Below, one piece after another: positions 3,323-57,151 of a stretch of DNA of 64,000 bases. Source of the stretch: Escherichia coli (GTDB lineage Bacteria; Pseudomonadota; Gammaproteobacteria; Enterobacterales; Enterobacteriaceae). Under the pieces are notes generated by a model. That model saw nothing but the letters and a program-made list of their open reading frames with translations. It was not told the origin of the DNA and searched no databases. The position numbers and the translations under genes are program-made. Every line of letters starts with the position of its first letter. Position 1 is the first letter of the stretch. Location: NCBI RefSeq assembly GCF_044647545.1, contig NZ_CP172818.1. One strand, written 5' to 3'.

Positions 3323-4234
3323 ATGTATTACGGGTTTGATATTGGTGGAACAAAAATTGCGCTAGGCGTGTTTGATAGCGGTCGGCAGTTGCAGTGGGAA
3401 AAGCGGGTGCCGACACCGCGTGACAGCTATGACGCATTTTTAGATGCAGTGTGTGAGCTGGTAGCTGAAGCTGACCAACGTTTTGGCTGTAAAGGCTCTG
3501 TCGGCATCGGTATTCCGGGAATGCCGGAAACAGAAGATGGTACGCTGTATGCCGCCAATGTCCCCGCTGCCAGCGGTAAACCGCTGCGTGCCGACCTGAG
3601 CGCACGTCTTGATCGCGATGTACGCCTTGATAACGATGCCAACTGTTTTGCCCTTTCAGAAGCCTGGGATGATGAATTTACTCAATATCCACTGGTGATG
3701 GGGTTGATTCTCGGCACCGGCGTTGGCGGTGGGCTGATTTTCAACGGCAAACCGATTACCGGTAAAAGCTACATTACCGGCGAGTTTGGCCATATGCGTC
3801 TGCCGGTTGATGCGTTAACCATGATGGGGTTGGATTTCCCGTTACGCCGCTGCGGCTGTGGTCAGCATGGCTGCATTGAAAATTATCTGTCTGGTCGCGG
3901 TTTTGCGTGGCTGTATCAACACTATTATCATCAACCGTTGCAGGCTCCTGAGATCATTGCGCTTTATGATCAAGGCGATGAGCAGGCAAGGGCGCACGTT
4001 GAGCGTTATCTGGATTTATTAGCGGTTTGTCTGGGAAATATCCTGACCATTGTTGACCCTGACCTGGTCGTCATTGGTGGTGGCTTATCGAATTTCCCGG
4101 CAATCACAACGCAACTGGCGGACAGGCTGCCTCGTCATCTCTTACCTGTAGCTCGTGTTCCGCGCATTGAACGCGCGCGCCACGGTGATGCGGGGGGAAT
4201 GCGTGGTGCGGCCTTCCTACATCTAACCGATTAA
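3323..4234 (+). CDS. nagK: N-acetyl-D-glucosamine kinase (ROK family)
   Basis: ATG at 3323 ([15 protein letters not shown]) gives 303 aa; ROK-type glycine-rich ATP motif and Cys-rich zinc motif CGCGQHGC. Confidence 0.85.
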
Positions 4235-19852: not shown

Positions 19853-21103
19853 ATGGAAAGTAAAGTAGTTGTTCCGGCACAAGGCAAGAAGATCACCCTG
19901 CAAAACGGCAAACTCAACGTTCCTGAAAATCCGATTATCCCTTACATTGAAGGTGATGGAATCGGTGTAGATGTAACCCCAGCCATGCTGAAAGTGGTCG
20001 ACGCTGCAGTCGAGAAAGCCTATAAAGGCGAGCGTAAAATCTCCTGGATGGAAATTTACACCGGTGAAAAATCCACACAGGTTTATGGTCAGGATGTCTG
20101 GCTACCTGCTGAAACCCTTGATCTGATTCGTGAATATCGCGTTGCCATCAAAGGCCCGCTGACCACTCCGGTTGGTGGTGGTATTCGCTCTCTCAACGTT
20201 GCTCTGCGCCAGGAACTGGATCTCTACATCTGCCTGCGTCCGGTACGTTACTATCAGGGCACTCCAAGCCCGGTTAAACACCCTGAACTGACCGATATGG
20301 TTATCTTCCGTGAAAACTCGGAAGACATTTATGCGGGTATCGAATGGAAAGCAGACTCTGCCGACGCTGAGAAAGTGATTAAATTCCTGCGTGAAGAGAT
20401 GGGCGTGAAGAAAATTCGCTTCCCGGAACATTGCGGCATCGGTATTAAGCCGTGTTCTGAAGAAGGCACCAAACGTCTGGTTCGTGCAGCGATCGAATAC
20501 GCAATTGCTAACGATCGTGACTCTGTGACCCTGGTGCACAAAGGCAACATCATGAAGTTCACCGAAGGCGCGTTTAAAGACTGGGGCTACCAGCTGGCGC
20601 GTGAAGAGTTTGGCGGTGAACTGATCGACGGCGGCCCGTGGCTGAAAGTTAAAAACCCGAACACCGGCAAAGAGATCGTCATTAAAGACGTGATTGCTGA
20701 TGCATTCCTGCAACAGATCCTGCTGCGTCCGGCTGAATATGATGTTATCGCCTGTATGAACCTGAACGGTGACTACATTTCTGACGCCCTGGCAGCGCAG
20801 GTTGGCGGTATCGGTATCGCCCCTGGCGCAAACATCGGTGACGAATGCGCCCTGTTTGAAGCCACCCACGGTACTGCGCCGAAATATGCCGGTCAGGACA
20901 AAGTAAACCCAGGCTCTATTATTCTCTCCGCTGAGATGATGTTACGCCATATGGGCTGGACTGAAGCCGCAGACTTGATTGTTAAAGGTATGGAAGGCGC
21001 AATCAACGCCAAGACTGTAACCTATGACTTCGAACGTCTGATGGAAGGCGCTAAACTGCTGAAATGTTCAGAGTTTGGTGACGCGATCATCAAGAATATG
21101 TAA
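19853..21103 (+). CDS. icd: isocitrate dehydrogenase (NADP)
   Basis: 416-aa ORF; the last ~53 codons lie inside the prophage-borne duplicated segment. Confidence 0.95.
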
Positions 21104-21154
21104 TTACTACATGTGTTAAATATTGTAACGGGCGTATAACACGCCCGTTGTTTT
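20943..21154 (+). repeat. attL-side copy of the 212-bp direct duplication (icd 3' end plus terminator)
   Basis: Appears identical to 36118..36329 by visual alignment at a constant offset of 15175 bp. Confidence 0.85.
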
Positions 21155-21156
21155 TT
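21127..21156 (+). terminator. rho-independent terminator of icd
   Basis: Stem aacgggcg / cgcccgtt with 7-nt loop followed by TTTTTT. Confidence 0.8.
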
Positions 21157-21518
21157 GTTAGGCTGCTAACGGTTATCAAAATTTTATCAAAAAAAGTTAT
21201 CAAAACCCCTCGGTAGTTTTGGGGTAGGCTGGCCGGTCAGGTGGTAGTTCTACTACTAGTCTCCCACATAGATATTCCTTAGCTTTTTATTATTGCTGGC
21301 GGACGCTCGTTAATATTTAAGGTCTTCATTGATTAAGACATCCCCAAAGTTAGTTATGTATTCACTGTTATTAGGACAATTATGAATTACCACTCCTTAC
21401 ACCCGCTCAAATATTGTTAAATTGCCGGTTTTGTATCAACTACTCACCCGGGACTCGCCAGGGGACAGCCAACAGGCATTGGGTGCAATCACCTTAGCGT
21501 TCAGGTACATGCGGAATG

Positions 21519-21543
21519 TAAAAAAGGCCGCGAGCGCGGCCCC
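21519..21543 (-). terminator. rho-independent terminator downstream of ymfD
   Basis: Minus strand: GGCCGCGCTCGCGGCC hairpin followed by TTTTTT, 55 nt beyond the ymfD stop. Confidence 0.65.
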
Positions 21544-21596
21544 TTCACATACATCTTTAGTACTGAGACTGTTTAACCTAGGGAATTATTATCGTA

Positions 21597-22262
21597 TTAT
21601 ATTGCATTACAACTCCCAACAGTGACATATGAACTTCCTGCTTTACTCCACGACTTTAATATTTCAAGGCCATGTGAAGAACATATTTCTTGCACTGCGA
21701 GTTCATCGAGTAATCCATAGTAAGAAACACTTTTTGAATTTTTGTAAATGTATCCGTAAAGATGTTTTCTTCCTGTTTCGTATTTTTTGAAGTATGAGCT
21801 TTTATATTGATTTACAATAAGAGTCTCACCTCCTGATTTTAGTAATCTCTTGATGCTAAGAACTATTTTGTCGATTGTATCCCGACAAGGAACGGCAGAG
21901 AGAACATTAGAGCAAAGGATGAAATCGTAACCCCCAATTATTTTGTCGACATCCTCGAAAGCAACTGTATTTGCATTTTTATAATATCGTGGGACATAGT
22001 CAATAATTTTAGTTTTAATTCCTCTAATAATTTGCTCTCTTTCAAGTTGCCTTTTCGAGTCTAGAAAAGTAACTTCATCAAATTTACTGATTAATTCATC
22101 AGAATATCTAAGTTTTCCGCAGCCAAAATCAAGGGCGTGGCCATTTTTCTCAATGCTTCTAATATACTCGCAAAGATATCTAGAGGGCATCGTATGAGGT
22201 TTTGCTGCATTCTCTGAGCGAATATTAACTCCGTGCATATTATAGTTCAAAGCAAGTACCAT
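21597..22262 (-). CDS. ymfD: putative SAM-dependent methyltransferase (prophage cargo)
   Basis: 221-aa ORF; class I MTase motif I LDFGCGK; AT-rich codon usage; start abuts the ymfE stop. Confidence 0.75.
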   Translation of the reverse strand: MVLALNYNMHGVNIRSENAAKPHTMPSRYLCEYIRSIEKNGHALDFGCGKLRYSDELISKFDEVTFLDSKRQLEREQIIRGIKTKIIDYVPRYYKNANTVAFEDVDKIIGGYDFILCSNVLSAVPCRDTIDKIVLSIKRLLKSGGETLIVNQYKSSYFKKYETGRKHLYGYIYKNSKSVSYYGLLDELAVQEICSSHGLEILKSWSKAGSSYVTVGSCNAI

Positions 22263-22976
22263 TCAATTAATGTTATTTTTAGTGAAAAATTCTTTTATTT
22301 TATCGTCCGGGATTTTTCCGACTTGACTTTCAGTTCTGGGCTTAACTGTCAAAGCAAAGATAATACCACTCACTGAGAATGATAAAATTACAAAAAAGAA
22401 TAAAGACAGCAAAGAACCTTCAACATGAAAAATATCCATTTGTTTGCAAAAAAAGATTATTAGGAAGGAAATTAATGCAATTATCGAAAATTCAAAAAAT
22501 ATCCAAAAATAGTATACTTTATTCCAGAAGAGTTCAATATAATGTTTGTCTTCAATTTTTCTTACTTCAGGGTAATATAGATTGCTCATTACATTGTGAG
22601 CTTCATCTTTATTTAATTTTCTGTTGACTCCAGCTCTCCGTGATAACGGTTTTATAATTAGATGCTTATCCCAAAGATATCGCACCCGAAGTAGTTTGGC
22701 TGCATTGTTATGTAGGTCTAACGCACCGCTAATTAAATATGCAAAAATCGCAAAAGCACAAGGTAATATACCAAAAGATAGTGCCCAATTAATAAAGCTC
22801 TCATGATCTTTAATAGGTGGGACATACTTGGTTGGTAATGTTATTAAAGGGATGTATTCGTAAATAACTAGAAGTATGCAATATATTAGCGTATTTAAGA
22901 AAGTTGCTTTATGAAGTTTAGGCAACATTTCATTATAATTTTTGGGGGGTTCGAACATATTATTCACCTGAGTCAC
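22263..22976 (-). CDS. ymfE: multi-pass membrane protein (prophage cargo)
   Basis: 237-aa ORF with about 4 predicted hydrophobic helices; very AT-rich; first gene of a two-gene minus-strand operon with ymfD. Confidence 0.7.
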   Translation of the reverse strand: MTQVNNMFEPPKNYNEMLPKLHKATFLNTLIYCILLVIYEYIPLITLPTKYVPPIKDHESFINWALSFGILPCAFAIFAYLISGALDLHNNAAKLLRVRYLWDKHLIIKPLSRRAGVNRKLNKDEAHNVMSNLYYPEVRKIEDKHYIELFWNKVYYFWIFFEFSIIALISFLIIFFCKQMDIFHVEGSLLSLFFFVILSFSVSGIIFALTVKPRTESQVGKIPDDKIKEFFTKNNIN

Positions 22977-23162
22977 GCTTTAGGATAGTGTAATGGTAAT
23001 ATTTAATTAAGTGTCATTATATACTTTTCAGTAGGTTAGTTACAATTTTTTGTATCTGTTCAGGCTGACCTAGCTTCGCTGACAGACAATATTGTGATCA
23101 GTAGCACGTATCGAGGAGGAGTAGCGCTACAAATTTGACGCTGGGTGAGAATCTGAAATTGA

Positions 23163-23234
23163 TAGAAATGAAATAATGAAATAATGAAATGATGAAATGA
23201 TGAAATGATGAAATGATGAAATGATGAAATGATG
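23163..23234. repeat. tandem octamer repeat: (AAATAATG)x2 then (AAATGATG)x6
   Basis: Directly readable perfect 8-bp tandem array in the divergent intergenic region between ymfE and lit. Confidence 0.9.
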
Positions 23235-23424
23235 ACAGAGTGTCCAGTGGGCACGGATGGTGTCTTACGACATGCTTACCTTAATCGTTCCCAGTGTGCC
23301 TATAGCAGATATTCTAAACATGTCGATAATTCATTACGCATATAGTATCGAACATAGAAAAAACTGAAGATTCATCTTATTTTGTATATACTACCTAGCC
23401 CAACAATGTAGAGGTTAACGAAAA

Positions 23425-24318
23425 ATGCGCTCACCAATTTGTCATCTTTTCTCAGCAATTAATTCATCACCATTTAAGATTGCACCAGAGAAGGAGCAAG
23501 ATCTTAAAACGATAGTTGACGACAAAAAAATTATAATTTCAGTTGTGAGTGAACCTGGTTTTAATATCCGAGTCAGGAAGAATGAGAGTAATAATTCACA
23601 TGAAATAGTTCTAACAGTAGCTTCACTTGAATATATTTGGGCATTTTCCAATTTCTTTTGGGTTTTTACGCAAGAGTACTCCAAATCTCAGAAAAATAAT
23701 GATGAGCACTTTGATTTAACAGGAAAAAATAGGCTTAAAAAGTCTGATGAACTTCTTAAATGGGCAAGGAAAAACTTGCAAACAACAGGTTGCGAATCAT
23801 GGCCTAAAAAATGTCCCAAGCCAGAAGCATATTTACAAGGAAGCGAAGACTCACAAGTTGCTAGCGAGATATTTCTTTGTGCTATTGCTTGGATTCTTCA
23901 TCATGAAATAAGTCATGTTGTTTTACAGCATCCATTGGTCACTACAGCATTCTCCACTCAAGAGGAGCGTGAAGCAGATTCACATGCTACAAAATGGATA
24001 TTAGGCAACCTGTATGAATCCGCTCCTGAATTAAAGAAACGTGCACTTGGCATTGCTACGGCAGTGCTTTGTATACAAAGCTTAGAAGTTGAAAATTACT
24101 TCTGTTTACAAAATACACACCCAGCTGCATATGAGCGTATATATTCGAATATTTCATGCTACCCTGTCGGAAATGAAGAGTTGATTGAAGCTCTATGTAC
24201 AGTGATGCTTCAATATCTTTTCCATGGCAAAAATATCAATGTGAATCTAGATGGGGAGTCCTTTTCATCGATTTTAGGTGATCTTCTCTGTGATATTTCA
24301 CGTCTTACCAGTAACTGA
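23425..24318 (+). CDS. lit: Lit cell-death zinc metalloprotease (phage-exclusion protease targeting EF-Tu)
   Basis: 297-aa ORF with HEXXH motif in ILHHEISHVVLQH; AT-rich. Confidence 0.85.
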   Translation: MRSPICHLFSAINSSPFKIAPEKEQDLKTIVDDKKIIISVVSEPGFNIRVRKNESNNSHEIVLTVASLEYIWAFSNFFWVFTQEYSKSQKNNDEHFDLTGKNRLKKSDELLKWARKNLQTTGCESWPKKCPKPEAYLQGSEDSQVASEIFLCAIAWILHHEISHVVLQHPLVTTAFSTQEEREADSHATKWILGNLYESAPELKKRALGIATAVLCIQSLEVENYFCLQNTHPAAYERIYSNISCYPVGNEELIEALCTVMLQYLFHGKNINVNLDGESFSSILGDLLCDISRLTSN

Positions 24319-24408
24319 TATGGCTGTCCGCCGCTCGCTTAAAGTGGACTTTTTAGTTTTTATCATGTGCGGTGAGAAATTCAATGTGGCGTTGAGATGC
24401 TTAAAGGT

Positions 24409-25536
24409 TCACAACGCTACTTTGCTCCATCCTTTACCTCGATCATCATGATAACGATCGGTTTGTTGTTGTGTTTTATGACCAAGTAGTTTTTGTGTGT
24501 CTAACCCCTGTTCTTTATACAGACGTTCAGATAAAGACCTTTGCTCATGGAATGTCGCAGGTGAACCCTCTCCCCAGTCAATTCTTGCTAAATCTCTCGC
24601 TTTACTAAAATTCATCGTCAATGTATTGGCTTTAACCTGCGCTCCGCGCTCTGCTTGTGAAGTTGAACGAAAAAAATGCACTAAGTATGCACTGACTGCA
24701 TAGTCACGGCAGCGGGCTACTACATCGCGTAAACTCCAGTTAATCGCATTGAGGCGAAGAGAAAGAGGAATTGCGATTTTGCTCCCGGTCTTTTCCTGAA
24801 TGACATGAAGATGATCATCCCAAATATCGCTAAATTTCATACGCGAAATATCACCTAACCGCTGACCAGTAACCAGCGCTAACAGCATGGCATTTCCCAT
24901 GTAACGATGAGTAGCGTCTGCGATATCGAAGATTTTTTTCCATTCTTCAAGGCTCAGCCGTTGTCGGGTAATTTTTCTTCTTGGTTGTTTAGTGGCTAAT
25001 GCTGGGTTATAGCCAGGAGGTACTTCTCCGTAGTGCTGCGCCTCTTTGAAAACATCAATCAGGACGGAGCGAACTACTTGTGCCATTCTTGGCCGCCCAG
25101 CGGCGATATACTCATCAAGCAATTGTGCTATATCTCTGACATCAACGGCTGAGATCAACTTCATTCCTGCTCGTTCTCTGAGCAAGGATACTGGTTTAGC
25201 TTTTTGTTTATAGGTGTTGAGTCTTATATCACCACTTTTAAGCCTGTCATCCTGGATCGCTTGATAGCGATCTAACCAGGTTGACGTTGTGATAGCCTTT
25301 CCTTTGCTGGTTGCGATCCTGTCACTGATAGCCAGAATCTGCCGGGTTCTTTGTTCAGCCAGGCGAGTGTTGGCCTCAGTGGCAATAGCGATAGCTTCAG
25401 CTTCGTTTGTTCCCAAAGCATGGAATTTTCCTGTCACTGGATGCTTATACCGCCAATAGACTTTATTTACCTTCCTACTATAAAGCGGATATAAGTTAGG
25501 GACTGAAACATTATTCTTACGCGGTCTGGCTGCCAT
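24409..25536 (-). CDS. intE: tyrosine integrase
   Basis: 375-aa ORF; C-terminal catalytic region with R..HxxR..Y (LLGHKTQQQTDRYHDD). Confidence 0.9.
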   Translation of the reverse strand: MAARPRKNNVSVPNLYPLYSRKVNKVYWRYKHPVTGKFHALGTNEAEAIAIATEANTRLAEQRTRQILAISDRIATSKGKAITTSTWLDRYQAIQDDRLKSGDIRLNTYKQKAKPVSLLRERAGMKLISAVDVRDIAQLLDEYIAAGRPRMAQVVRSVLIDVFKEAQHYGEVPPGYNPALATKQPRRKITRQRLSLEEWKKIFDIADATHRYMGNAMLLALVTGQRLGDISRMKFSDIWDDHLHVIQEKTGSKIAIPLSLRLNAINWSLRDVVARCRDYAVSAYLVHFFRSTSQAERGAQVKANTLTMNFSKARDLARIDWGEGSPATFHEQRSLSERLYKEQGLDTQKLLGHKTQQQTDRYHDDRGKGWSKVAL

Positions 25537-25762
25537 TACTCAAAATCCGTTGCAAAAGTAATGAGTCATTTTTCTTGATTACAGGTGTTACCAACTCCCC
25601 AACTAACTCGGCGTCCTCACGCACTCGCCATAACCGGCCTTGTTTCATGGCCGGTGGACAAAATAAATTCTGCTTAGCATAACGACGCAATGTGGACACA
25701 CTTGGAGGATTACTTCTGTATTTTTCAGCAGCCCATTCTTCAAGAGTTAACATTTGAAGCAT
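25517..25762 (-). CDS. xisE: excisionase (AlpA/Xis-like HTH)
   Basis: 81-aa ORF overlapping the int start; typical int-xis arrangement. Confidence 0.8.
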   Translation of the reverse strand: MLQMLTLEEWAAEKYRSNPPSVSTLRRYAKQNLFCPPAMKQGRLWRVREDAELVGELVTPVIKKNDSLLLQRILSNGSQTA

Positions 25763-35047: not shown

Positions 35048-35881
35048 ATGCATGTTTTTGATAATAATGGAATTGAACTGAAAGCTGAGTGTTCGATAGG
35101 TGAAGAGGATGGTGTTTATGGTCTAATCCTTGAGTCGTGGGGGCCGGGTGACAGAAACAAAGATTACAATATCGCTCTTGATTATATCATTGAACGGTTG
35201 GTTGATTCTGGTGTATCCCAAGTCGTAGTATATCTGGCGTCATCATCAGTCAGAAAACATATGCATTCTTTGGATGAAAGAAAAATCCATCCTGGTGAAT
35301 ATTTTACTTTGATTGGTAATAGCCCCCGCGATATACGCTTGAAGATGTGTGGTTATCAGGCTTATTTTAGTCGTACGGGGAGAAAGGAAATTCCTTCCGG
35401 CAATAGAACGAAACGAATATTGATAAATGTTCCAGGTATTTATAGTGACAGTTTTTGGGCGTCTATAATACGTGGAGAACTATCAGAGCTTTCACAGCCT
35501 ACAGATGATGAATCGCTTCTGAATATGAGGGTTAGTAAATTAATTAAGAAAACGTTGAGTCAACCCGAGGGCTCCAGGAAACCAGTTGAGGTAGAAAGAC
35601 TACAAAAAGTTTATGTCCGAGACCCGATGGTAAAAGCTTGGATTTTACAGCAAAGTAAAGGTATATGTGAAAACTGTGGTAAAAATGCTCCGTTTTATTT
35701 AAATGATGGAAACCCATATTTGGAAGTACATCATGTAATTCCCCTGTCTTCAGGTGGTGCTGATACAACAGATAACTGTGTTGCCCTTTGTCCGAATTGC
35801 CATAGAGAATTGCACTATAGTAAAAATGCAAAAGAACTAATCGAGATGCTTTACGTTAATATAAACCGATTACAGAAATAA
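35048..35881 (+). CDS. mcrA: HNH endonuclease McrA (restriction of modified DNA)
   Basis: 277-aa ORF; C-terminal HNH motif HHVIPLSSGGADTTDNCVALCPNCHRELH; AT-rich. Confidence 0.85.
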   Translation: MHVFDNNGIELKAECSIGEEDGVYGLILESWGPGDRNKDYNIALDYIIERLVDSGVSQVVVYLASSSVRKHMHSLDERKIHPGEYFTLIGNSPRDIRLKMCGYQAYFSRTGRKEIPSGNRTKRILINVPGIYSDSFWASIIRGELSELSQPTDDESLLNMRVSKLIKKTLSQPEGSRKPVEVERLQKVYVRDPMVKAWILQQSKGICENCGKNAPFYLNDGNPYLEVHHVIPLSSGGADTTDNCVALCPNCHRELHYSKNAKELIEMLYVNINRLQK

Positions 35882-36117
35882 AATTATTTATTAAAGTCAC
35901 ATTTAAGACGTAATACCCTACAGGGTAAAAATTTTCTCTGATCTTAACTTCTGCAAATGTTAACTGCTATTTTTATGCTAAAAATGGTTATCAAAACTCA
36001 AAAACACATGTTTATAATCAATGAGTTATAGAAATGCTAAGGGCTAATGAGTTATATGCAAATTAGTAAAATTATGTTGCTATGTCAGATAGTTACGATT
36101 TAGTCATCTAACTAATG

Positions 36118-36278
36118 TACGCCATATGGGCTGGACTGAAGCCGCAGACTTGATTGTTAAAGGTATGGAAGGCGCAATCAACGCCAAGACTGTAACCTAT
36201 GACTTCGAACGTCTGATGGAAGGCGCTAAACTGCTGAAATGTTCAGAGTTTGGTGACGCGATCATCAAGAATATGTAA
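36118..36278 (+). pseudogene. icdC: icd 3' fragment (last ~53 codons) left at attR
   Basis: Sequence appears identical to icd 20943..21103 but has no upstream coding continuation. Confidence 0.8.
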
Positions 36279-36329
36279 TTACTACATGTGTTAAATATTG
36301 TAACGGGCGTATAACACGCCCGTTGTTTT
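36118..36329 (+). repeat. attR-side copy of the 212-bp direct duplication
   Basis: Same sequence as 20943..21154, including the terminator hairpin. Confidence 0.85.
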
Positions 36330-55883: not shown

Positions 55884-57151
55884 TGTTTGCCCTCTGTGAT
55901 GTAAACGCGTTTTATGCCAGCTGTGAGACGGTGTTTCGCCCTGATTTATGGGGTAAACCAGTGGTTGTGCTATCGAATAATGACGGTTGCGTTATCGCCC
56001 GAAACGCTGAGGCAAAGGCGCTGGGTGTTAAAATGGGCGATCCCTGGTTCAAACAAAAAGATCTGTTTCGTCGCTGTGGCGTGGTTTGCTTTAGCAGCAA
56101 TTATGAGCTTTACGCAGACATGAGCAATCGGGTGATGTCGACGCTGGAAGAACTATCGCCCCGCGTCGAGATTTACAGTATTGATGAGGCATTCTGCGAT
56201 CTGACCGGTGTGCGTAATTGTCGCGATCTGACTGATTTTGGCAGAGAAATTCGCGCAACGGTGCTACAACGAACCCATCTTACTGTTGGTGTGGGGATCG
56301 CCCAGACCAAAACGCTGGCTAAGCTTGCCAATCATGCGGCAAAAAAATGGCAGCGGCAGACGGGTGGGGTGGTGGATTTATCAAATCTGGAACGCCAGCG
56401 TAAATTAATGTCTGCTCTCCCCGTGGATGAAGTCTGGGGGATTGGACGGCGGATCAGCAAAAAACTGGATGCGATGGGGATCAAAACCGTTCTCGATTTG
56501 GCGGATACAGATATCCGGTTTATCCGTAAACATTTTAATGTCGTGCTCGAAAGAACGGTGCGTGAACTGCGCGGCGAACCCTGTTTGCAACTGGAAGAGT
56601 TTGCACCGACGAAGCAGGAAATTATCTGTTCCCGTTCGTTTGGTGAACGCATCACGGATTATACGTCGATGCGGCAGGCCATTTGTAGTTACGCTGCCCG
56701 GGCGGCGGAAAAACTTCGCAGCGAGCATCAATATTGTCGGTTTATCTCCACGTTTATTAAGACGTCACCATTTGCGCTCAATGAACCTTATTACGGCAAT
56801 AGCGCGTCGGTAAAACTGCTGACGCCCACTCAGGACAGCAGGGATATCATTAACGCCGCTACGCGATCTCTGGATGCCATCTGGCAAGCGGGCCATCGTT
56901 ATCAAAAAGCGGGCGTGATGCTGGGGGATTTCTTCAGTCAGGGAGTCGCGCAGCTCAATTTATTCGATGACAACGCACCGCGCCCCGGGAGTGAGCAATT
57001 GATGGCGGTAATGGATACGCTAAATGCTAAAGAGGGCAGAGGAACACTCTATTTTGTCGGGCAGGGGATCCAGCAACAATGGCAGATGAAGCGTGCCATG
57101 CTTTCACCACGTTATACAACGCGAAGTTCTGATTTACTGCGGGTCAAATAA
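55883..57151 (+). CDS. umuC: translesion DNA polymerase V catalytic subunit UmuC (Y family)
   Basis: 422-aa ORF; N-terminus [15 protein letters not shown]; start overlaps umuD stop. Confidence 0.9.
   Translation: MFALCDVNAFYASCETVFRPDLWGKPVVVLSNNDGCVIARNAEAKALGVKMGDPWFKQKDLFRRCGVVCFSSNYELYADMSNRVMSTLEELSPRVEIYSIDEAFCDLTGVRNCRDLTDFGREIRATVLQRTHLTVGVGIAQTKTLAKLANHAAKKWQRQTGGVVDLSNLERQRKLMSALPVDEVWGIGRRISKKLDAMGIKTVLDLADTDIRFIRKHFNVVLERTVRELRGEPCLQLEEFAPTKQEIICSRSFGERITDYTSMRQAICSYAARAAEKLRSEHQYCRFISTFIKTSPFALNEPYYGNSASVKLLTPTQDSRDIINAATRSLDAIWQAGHRYQKAGVMLGDFFSQGVAQLNLFDDNAPRPGSEQLMAVMDTLNAKEGRGTLYFVGQGIQQQWQMKRAMLSPRYTTRSSDLLRVK

Follow-up and report, generated by a model that had tools for sequence, protein, structure and literature searches.

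Four co-oriented copies of a short repeat flank the attachment site of an e14-type prophage that interrupts icd in the window (the whole 64,000-nucleotide stretch of Escherichia coli DNA that was analysed), with one copy on the P arm and three on the P' arm. As judged from sequence comparison, these TTATCAAAA-containing sites are very probably the arm-type sites of the prophage integrase, IntE, equivalent to the P1 and P'1 to P'3 sites of phage lambda. The sites exist as exact copies, stand out statistically, have a defined position, number, spacing and orientation, and are deeply conserved. IntE has an arm-binding domain, and related elements have a parallel layout with different motifs. The N-terminal domain of IntE would be the protein module that binds the four sites.

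Setting of the repeats in the e14-type prophage

The element in the window is a natural variant of e14, distinct from the copy carried by K-12. It interrupts the host gene icd (19853-21103, plus strand), and an identity block of 212 nt is duplicated at its two ends with 100% identity. The attL copy of this block (20943-21154, plus strand) comprises the last 160 nt of icd, the stop codon and the terminator, while the attR copy (36118-36329, plus strand) is icdC, the displaced icd 3' end, which the K-12 annotation lists as a pseudogene of partial isocitrate dehydrogenase. Crossover is likely to take place in the region CGCCATATGGG, on the plus strand at the left edge of the block (20945-20955 in attL and 36120-36130 in attR), and the icd intrinsic terminator hairpin (21125-21151, plus strand) forms the final element of the block. 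Between the two copies, the gene content of ymfD, ymfE, lit, intE and xisE through to mcrA (35048-35881) agreed with the K-12 annotation. Overall identity to K-12 e14 was 97.6%, with indels present, but there were no mismatches from 21155 to approximately 25800 and the 236-bp P arm was 100% identical; hence, the repeats are those of classical e14. In K-12 e14, attL/attR identity is confined to approximately the first 66 bp of the block, and strand exchange was therefore placed at the left end of the block.

Two features of the ends distinguished this variant from K-12. The full 212-nt identity between attL and attR differs from the situation in K-12, where the two copies agree for only ∼66 bp and compensatory changes are seen in the terminator stems; the contrast points to either gene conversion or an incoming element with a block matching the allele of this host. 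The attR junction (36110-36122) reads AACTAATG-TACGCC and is 1 bp shorter than that of K-12 and 49 relatives, which have AATGCTGCGCC or AATGTTACGCC, which places the P site at a distance of 134 bp from the core in the window, instead of 135 bp. Either a sequencing error or a true deletion beside the left core site could account for this difference.

An array of three copies following the attL duplication at 21173 to 21205 had been proposed in an initial annotation and was confirmed: exact plus-strand copies of TTATCAAAA occupy 21173-21181, 21184-21192 and 21197-21205, with start-to-start distances of 11 and 13 bp. From the end of the 212-bp duplication to the beginning of the first copy is 18 bp, and the triplet begins 22 bp past the terminator hairpin. 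Extended to 14 nt and scored with a position weight matrix (PWM), the candidate arm-type sites on this side, all on the plus strand, are P'1 (CGGTTATCAAAATT, 21170-21183, 20.7 bits), P'2 (ATTTTATCAAAAAA, 21181-21194, 15.4 bits), which follows P'1 by 11 bp, and P'3 (AAGTTATCAAAACC, 21194-21207, 20.6 bits), which forms the outer edge of the conserved attP. The same annotation had placed GGTTATCAAAA near attR at 35976-35986. This copy was found, although the coordinates were 10 bp too low, and GGTTATCAAAA is located at 35986-35996 within a lambda P1-like candidate site on the P arm (TGGTTATCAAAACT, 35985-35998, plus strand) with the best PWM score in the window, 21.2 bits. A perfect, H1-like match to the integration host factor (IHF) consensus WATCAANNNNTTR is present between the P site and the core (AATCAATGAGTTA, 36016-36028, plus strand).

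The significance of the repeats was examined in several ways. Six exact copies of TTATCAAAA were observed in the window in comparison to an expectation of 1.3, and none of 100 shuffled sequences reached six. In a look-elsewhere test for nontrivial 9-mers with at least three copies inside 40 bp, the only qualifying features were the triplet and an unrelated array of 8-bp units; comparable 9-mer clusters were absent from all 200 Markov simulations. When the 14-nt PWM was applied to the 64-kb window, the four att-flanking sites ranked as the top four, with scores of 15.4 to 21.2 bits compared to 13.5 bits or less elsewhere. The unrelated array consists of approximately ten tandem 8-bp units (ATGAAATG or ATGAAATA) at 23160-23247, between ymfE and lit, within a small minus-strand open reading frame (ORF) at 23060-23254.

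The reconstructed attP and its counterparts in other phages

The attP was rebuilt by joining the right end of the prophage to the left end, and offsets were counted relative to where the identity block begins. The P copy comes first, with the final A of its CAAAA at -121, followed by the IHF consensus AATCAATGAGTTA at -102, CGCCATATGGG at the left edge of the block, the 212-bp icd replacement block and then the P' copies, for which the last A of CAAAA is at +239, +250 and +263. All four copies are co-oriented, and ∼396 bp separate the P copy from the third P' copy. The repeated motif is therefore present on both arms, with one copy 121 to 132 bp to the left of the block and three copies 19 to 52 bp to the right, and is unrelated in sequence to the core, CGCCATATGGG.

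This layout matched that of the integrative set of lambda, in which a P1-like site is combined with three tandem, co-oriented P' sites set approximately one helical turn apart on the int-proximal side. In the lambda attP, P1 lies ∼140 bp to the left of the core, within the range of ∼130 to 140 bp that covers both lambda and e14, and is followed by an IHF site, while P'1 to P'3 are co-oriented tandem sites at 10- to 11-bp intervals that abut int. Lambda Int is heterobivalent, with an N-terminal domain homologous to that of IntE and an arm-type consensus of C/AAGTCACTAT; its P'2 site, CAGTCAAAAT, resembles the e14 motif, GTTATCAAAAT. Three differences were counted against an assignment of the e14 repeats as arm-type sites. 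The lambda attP is ∼240 bp long with P' sites 55 to 85 bp from the core, behind the H' site, whereas the e14 P' sites are ∼230 to 255 bp from the crossover, a greater distance that arises because the gene-replacement block intervenes. Lambda has an inverted P2 site, whereas a PWM search of the e14 P arm detected no P2-like inverted site above 6.5 bits. Between the core and the P' triplet, there was no H'-type IHF consensus apart from the one to which copies 1 and 2 themselves give rise.

Bridging of arm and core sites is an established mechanism in lambda, where integration utilizes P1 and P'1 to P'3 as four sites held by four Int N-terminal domains (PMC4880445). By analogy, excision of e14 would join the prophage ends to give an attP of ∼400 bp, consisting of a P site ∼130 bp to the left of the crossover, an IHF site 30 bp later, the core, the 212-bp replacement for the icd 3' end and terminator, and P'1 to P'3. 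Four IntE protomers would hold the four high-affinity arm sites through their small N-terminal domains and the weak core sites through their catalytic domains, with IHF bending the DNA so as to bring arms and core together. Integration would leave the triplet in attL, a short distance downstream of icd, and the single site in attR, and XisE would redirect the same sites for SOS-induced excision. The assignment of the sites to integration versus excision follows lambda and is accordingly presumptive.

A close known counterpart was phage 21, whose Int is 60% identical to IntE and which has the same attB in icd and the same icd replacement block of ∼212 bp. The phage 21 P site, CTTTCCCCAAAA, ends at -121, exactly as in e14, and its three tandem P' dodecamers end at +239, +251 and +264, so that P'1 of e14 coincides with the first dodecamer and the others differ by 1 bp. 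An IHF consensus is located at -102 in both elements. The phage 21 sites are also all co-oriented and have the 3' half CAAAA in common with e14, whereas the 5' half is TTCCC in phage 21 and GTTAT in e14. This difference between the e14 motif, GTTATCAAAA, and the phage 21 motif, TTCCCCAAAA, is in step with the divergence of the Int N-terminal domains, which are 63% identical. The phage 21 triplet carries a GenBank misc_feature (OL657228.1) reading 'attP ... 3 subsites P1P2P3; consensus YYTTCCCCAAAA'. In phage 21, int abuts P'3, whereas in e14 a 3.2-kb cargo (ymfD-ymfE-lit) is in between.

An attP of e14 with lambda-style arm-type sites is already known biology, established by work of the 1990s on phage 21 and e14. 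Wang et al. reportedly delimited the phage 21 attP in 1997 to 366 to 418 bp, with the outermost of the repeated dodecamers as its boundaries, and are said to have obtained a change in specificity when the phage 21 arm consensus was swapped to the e14 counterpart; the e14 attP measured in the window, at ∼396 bp, is of similar length. The arm consensus and the Xis-binding region were reportedly handled in that work as separate segments and specificity determinants.

A parallel layout was observed in two further prophages of the same Int/Xis family that have other target genes, in which the P' triplets start 0 to 15 bp past the target-gene replacement block. PPompW, with an Int 50% identical to IntE and a target in ompW, has a P site, CTCCTGCAAAAC, ending at -120, an IHF consensus at -101 and three copies of the P' motif CTCTGCAAAAC with a spacing of 11 and 13 bp, which begin immediately after its own 121-bp replacement block. 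In the vB_EcoS-640R1 prophage, located beside potC and with an Int 47% identical to IntE, a comparison covering the P' triplet detected three copies of YTCYCCAAAAC with 11- and 13-bp spacing adjoining int. The step from P'1 to P'2 is thus 11 bp in e14, PPompW and 640R1 and 12 bp in phage 21. Four arm-motif classes, each with its own class of Int N-terminal domain, occur on one conserved scaffold, and this series could guide the reprogramming of arm specificity.

Other short elements were noted on the e14 P arm between the IHF consensus and the core. A direct repeat of AATGAGTTATA (36020-36030 and 36046-36056, 26 bp apart), the first copy of which overlaps the IHF site, lies where lambda-type Xis sites would be expected; this repeat is not kept where P arms have diverged, for instance in strain 23CRST032. 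Many diverged P arms (for example, L204, L206 and L217) have a second IHF-like element close to the consensus (AATCATnnGGTTR) ∼35 bp to the left of the core, which resembles lambda H2, and the e14 version, GTCAGATAGTTAC (∼36082-36096), is weaker.

Conservation among e14-type elements

Conservation of the repeats in related prophages had been put forward in the initial annotation as a check on their significance, and the outcome was positive: number, spacing and position were kept across dozens of elements, while the flanking DNA was not. Phage 689R6 (Int 95% identical to IntE) and relatives from IMG/VR (Int 82 to 93% identical) retained the triplet with its 11- and 13-bp spacing. The terminator stems vary among these relatives by compensatory substitutions, and the downstream triplet is invariant.

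A scan of species-representative genomes was performed with a pattern comprising only the first two copies. Approximately half of the matches (in Flavobacterium, Firmicutes metagenome-assembled genomes and others) were in unrelated coding sequence and were set aside. In the 52 icd-linked loci, the motif was always 69 to 71 bp after the icd stop codon, and these loci spanned Proteus, Providencia, Xenorhabdus, Serratia, Erwinia, Tatumella, Citrobacter, Enterobacter and other genera. A third copy was present exactly 13 bp after the second in 45 of 49 species-level icd-linked relatives, even though it was absent from the search pattern. Information content fell from ∼1.8 bits to ∼0 directly past this third copy, and a complete divergence of sequence beyond the same point was observed in a comparison of e14, 689R6 and the IMG/VR relatives. 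Across Enterobacterales, e14-type elements have their outer edge marked by the motif GGTTATCAAAA-N2-TTATCAAAA-N4-TTATCAAAAC, 70 bp after the icd stop codon, which could be utilized for annotation.

An IntE-like gene begins ∼25 to 37 bp past the second copy in many of the icd-linked loci, and in relatives without cargo, int begins 8 to 37 bp beyond P'3. The corresponding gap in the window (21207-24408) holds ymfD, ymfE and lit, while 689R6 has a DUF262 gene and another ORF in this location. The P'3/int gap is a hotspot for cargo insertion, and the e14 cargo is inserted exactly at the boundary of the repeats. In 18 IMG/VR loci with DNA downstream of int, cargo intervenes and the contigs end before att, so that the lack of a triplet in this DNA is uninformative rather than negative.

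The P arm was examined independently of the genome scan by searching viral contigs with a pattern consisting of the P site and a nearby IHF-like sequence. The P site was located 135 to 137 bp from an icd-type core in 52 viral contigs. These 52 P arms formed 15 clusters, and the intervening 80 bp were essentially unalignable (median identity, 38%). Exact retention of the P copy was also seen in diverged P arms. The IHF consensus was at +30 from the P site in 52 of 52 icd-linked viral contigs, a frequency that was partly imposed by the search pattern. One contig (L248) had a complete attP, with the core at +135 and the triplet at +360 relative to the P site. At a distance of 135 bp from CGCCAYATGGG, the P copy marks the opposite edge of e14-type elements.

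The number of P' copies was variable in a few loci. Four copies were present in Siccibacter (L097), whereas Raoultella, Buttiauxella and an Enterobacteriaceae strain (L133, L139 and L155) had two copies 13 bp apart, an arrangement also found in the STnc150 RNA consensus considered below. No complete int was detected near these two-copy loci, the gene being absent in two of them and represented by a partial match in Raoultella, and the variation in copy number may reflect the decay of remnants. An IMG/VR contig encoding an Int 93% identical to IntE (L017, 4760-5010, minus strand) had the terminator followed by a degenerate triplet (TTATCAAATC, TTATCAAAAC and TTATCAAAGC). The DNA upstream was noncoding and was not icd, and this contig is probably a rearranged or decaying element.

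Candidate binding partners and alternative roles

The prophage recombination genes were examined for a protein with the capacity to bind arm-type sites. The tyrosine integrase gene intE (24409-25536, minus strand) encodes a complete lambda-type N-terminal arm-DNA-binding domain (PF09003, Arm-DNA-bind_1; residues 1 to 73; E = 1.2e-37) together with a tyrosine recombinase catalytic domain (PF00589). Full-length IntE matched the crystal and EM structures 1z1b, 5j0n and 1z1g of lambda Int in a search of PDB sequences, with an alignment starting at residue 15, and the same search with the N-terminal domain alone produced no match. The adjacent xisE gene (25517-25762, minus strand) encodes a lambda-type excisionase, or directionality factor (PF07825, Exc; E = 2e-12).

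Four motif classes correspond to four classes of Int N-terminal domain. Residues N9, L18, S20 and K22 are common to IntE and 14 of 14 integrases encoded beside a TTATCAAAA triplet and differ in the other three motif classes, and integrases of the TTATCAAAA class share MAARPRKNN...NLYPL(Y/F/L)SRK. This match between motif class and domain class fits recognition of the repeats by the N-terminal domain. Xis covaried with motif class as Int did, with 62 to 88% identity to XisE as opposed to 31 to 38%. Covariation therefore cannot tell Int from Xis, was rejected as a discriminator and ties the motif to the recombination module only.

The repeats had been described in the initial annotation as typical of either integrase arm-type sites or IHF/Xis sites. 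The arm-type option was well supported by the IntE domain, the one-plus-three layout, the phage 21 annotation and conservation, whereas the IHF/Xis option was weaker, the IHF consensus of the P arm being a different sequence located 30 bp away. It is improbable that the repeats are accessory bending sites for IHF rather than Int sites, even though copy 1 and the start of copy 2 form TATCAAAATTTTA, a perfect match to WATCAANNNNTTR, and the H' site for IHF adjoins P'1 in lambda. The perfect consensus, TATCAAAAnnTTA (21174-21186), is spelled by the P'1/P'2 pair as a result of the 11-bp step between copies 1 and 2, and any e14-type pair at this spacing recreates it. Only copy 1 of the four fits the consensus, the remaining two P' copies and the P copy failing to do so, and IHF footprints extend over ∼35 bp and do not occur as three tandem units of 11 to 13 bp. 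Furthermore, the triplets of phage 21, PPompW and 640R1 are without an IHF consensus and yet have the same number, spacing and position, and the IHF consensus that is conserved in the P arm is a sequence separate from the P copy. The consensus within P'1/P'2 may be a by-product of the spacing, or binding of Int and IHF may overlap here in an e14-specific manner.

Binding by XisE is a quite improbable basis for the repeats. Three tandem units at approximately one helical turn are like the lambda Xis sites X1-X1.5-X2, which are three head-to-tail sites ∼10 bp apart and which are confined to the part of the P arm that separates P2 from the core (PMC4880445). The identity of Xis also covaries with motif class as strongly as that of Int. 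However, a P'-arm triplet beside int, together with one more copy on the opposite arm, is the pattern of arm-type sites, and the motif resembles the lambda arm sites and not the lambda Xis sites. The phage 21 experiments of Wang et al. reportedly kept the arm consensus and the Xis region separate. Int was hence preferred to Xis because of the two-arm, one-plus-three layout, the likeness to arm sites of lambda, the GenBank annotation of phage 21 and what is said to have been found in those experiments.

A role for the repeats as a promoter or operator was dropped, as neither a sigma-70-like promoter nor a minus-strand terminator was seen to overlap them.

The DNA of the P' arm, read on the opposite strand, is also that of a small RNA (sRNA) family, STnc150, a minus-strand RNA gene. 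The Rfam model for this family (RF01402) matched the minus strand of the window at 21117-21322 with 27.5 bits (E = 5e-4), which is below the gathering score of 60 and makes this segment a nonmember. The STnc150 consensus has GUUUUGAUAA twice, followed by the antisense of an icd-type terminator, and reads ...GUUUUGAUAAAUUAUUUUGAUAACCGUU...; it includes the reverse complement of two copies only of TTATCAAAA plus an AACGG leader. At the L150 locus, a segment antisense to and directly downstream of icd (3535-3789) scored 64.8 bits, above the STnc150 threshold, and lies over two TTATCAAAA copies. An additional RNA, co293/C0293, is located ∼240 bp deeper in e14 and is not known to overlap the repeats. 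STnc150 itself has been validated as an sRNA in Salmonella, where it is encoded between icdA and STM1239 and transcribed towards icdA (PMC2515195, PMC10964419). The STnc150 gene therefore appears, from this correspondence in sequence, to sit on the P' arm of a fossil e14-type attL, which suggests that the gene for a validated Salmonella sRNA derives from an att arm.

These matches raised the question of whether the repeats are primarily part of an STnc150-like antisense sRNA, in which the reverse complement, UUUUGAUAA, beside the terminator hairpin would be a module for an RNA chaperone or for target pairing. Such a primary role has in its favour the STnc150 match in the window, the L150 member above threshold and the validation of STnc150 in Salmonella, but we regard it as highly improbable. 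The match in the window is far under the gathering score, and neither a promoter-like site nor a minus-strand terminator was found at the repeats. A primary RNA role also leaves unexplained both the fourth copy at the prophage's opposite end, fixed at 135 bp from the core, and the parallel triplets of different sequence in phage 21, PPompW and 640R1. Exaptation of a fossil arm in Salmonella accounts for the data better. There is a small but appreciable chance that the triplet has had a second life as RNA, its reverse complement and the antisense of the icd terminator together making up the 3' body of STnc150 RNAs, whereby a fossil attL arm became a chaperone-associated regulatory RNA in Salmonella and its relatives and the e14 antisense segment at 21117-21322 might be expressed and functional in E. 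coli.

The chance that the repeats are a coincidental or low-complexity A/T-rich feature without function is next to nil, since, despite the A/T-rich motif and two more exact copies elsewhere in the window, comparable clusters arose in 0 of 200 simulations, the four sites rank highest in the window by PWM score and they are invariant across Enterobacterales while their flanks are randomized. The two other exact copies of TTATCAAAA, at 35056-35064 (minus strand, where mcrA begins) and 56899-56907 (plus strand), scored ∼12 bits in context, had no partner copies and are probably due to chance.
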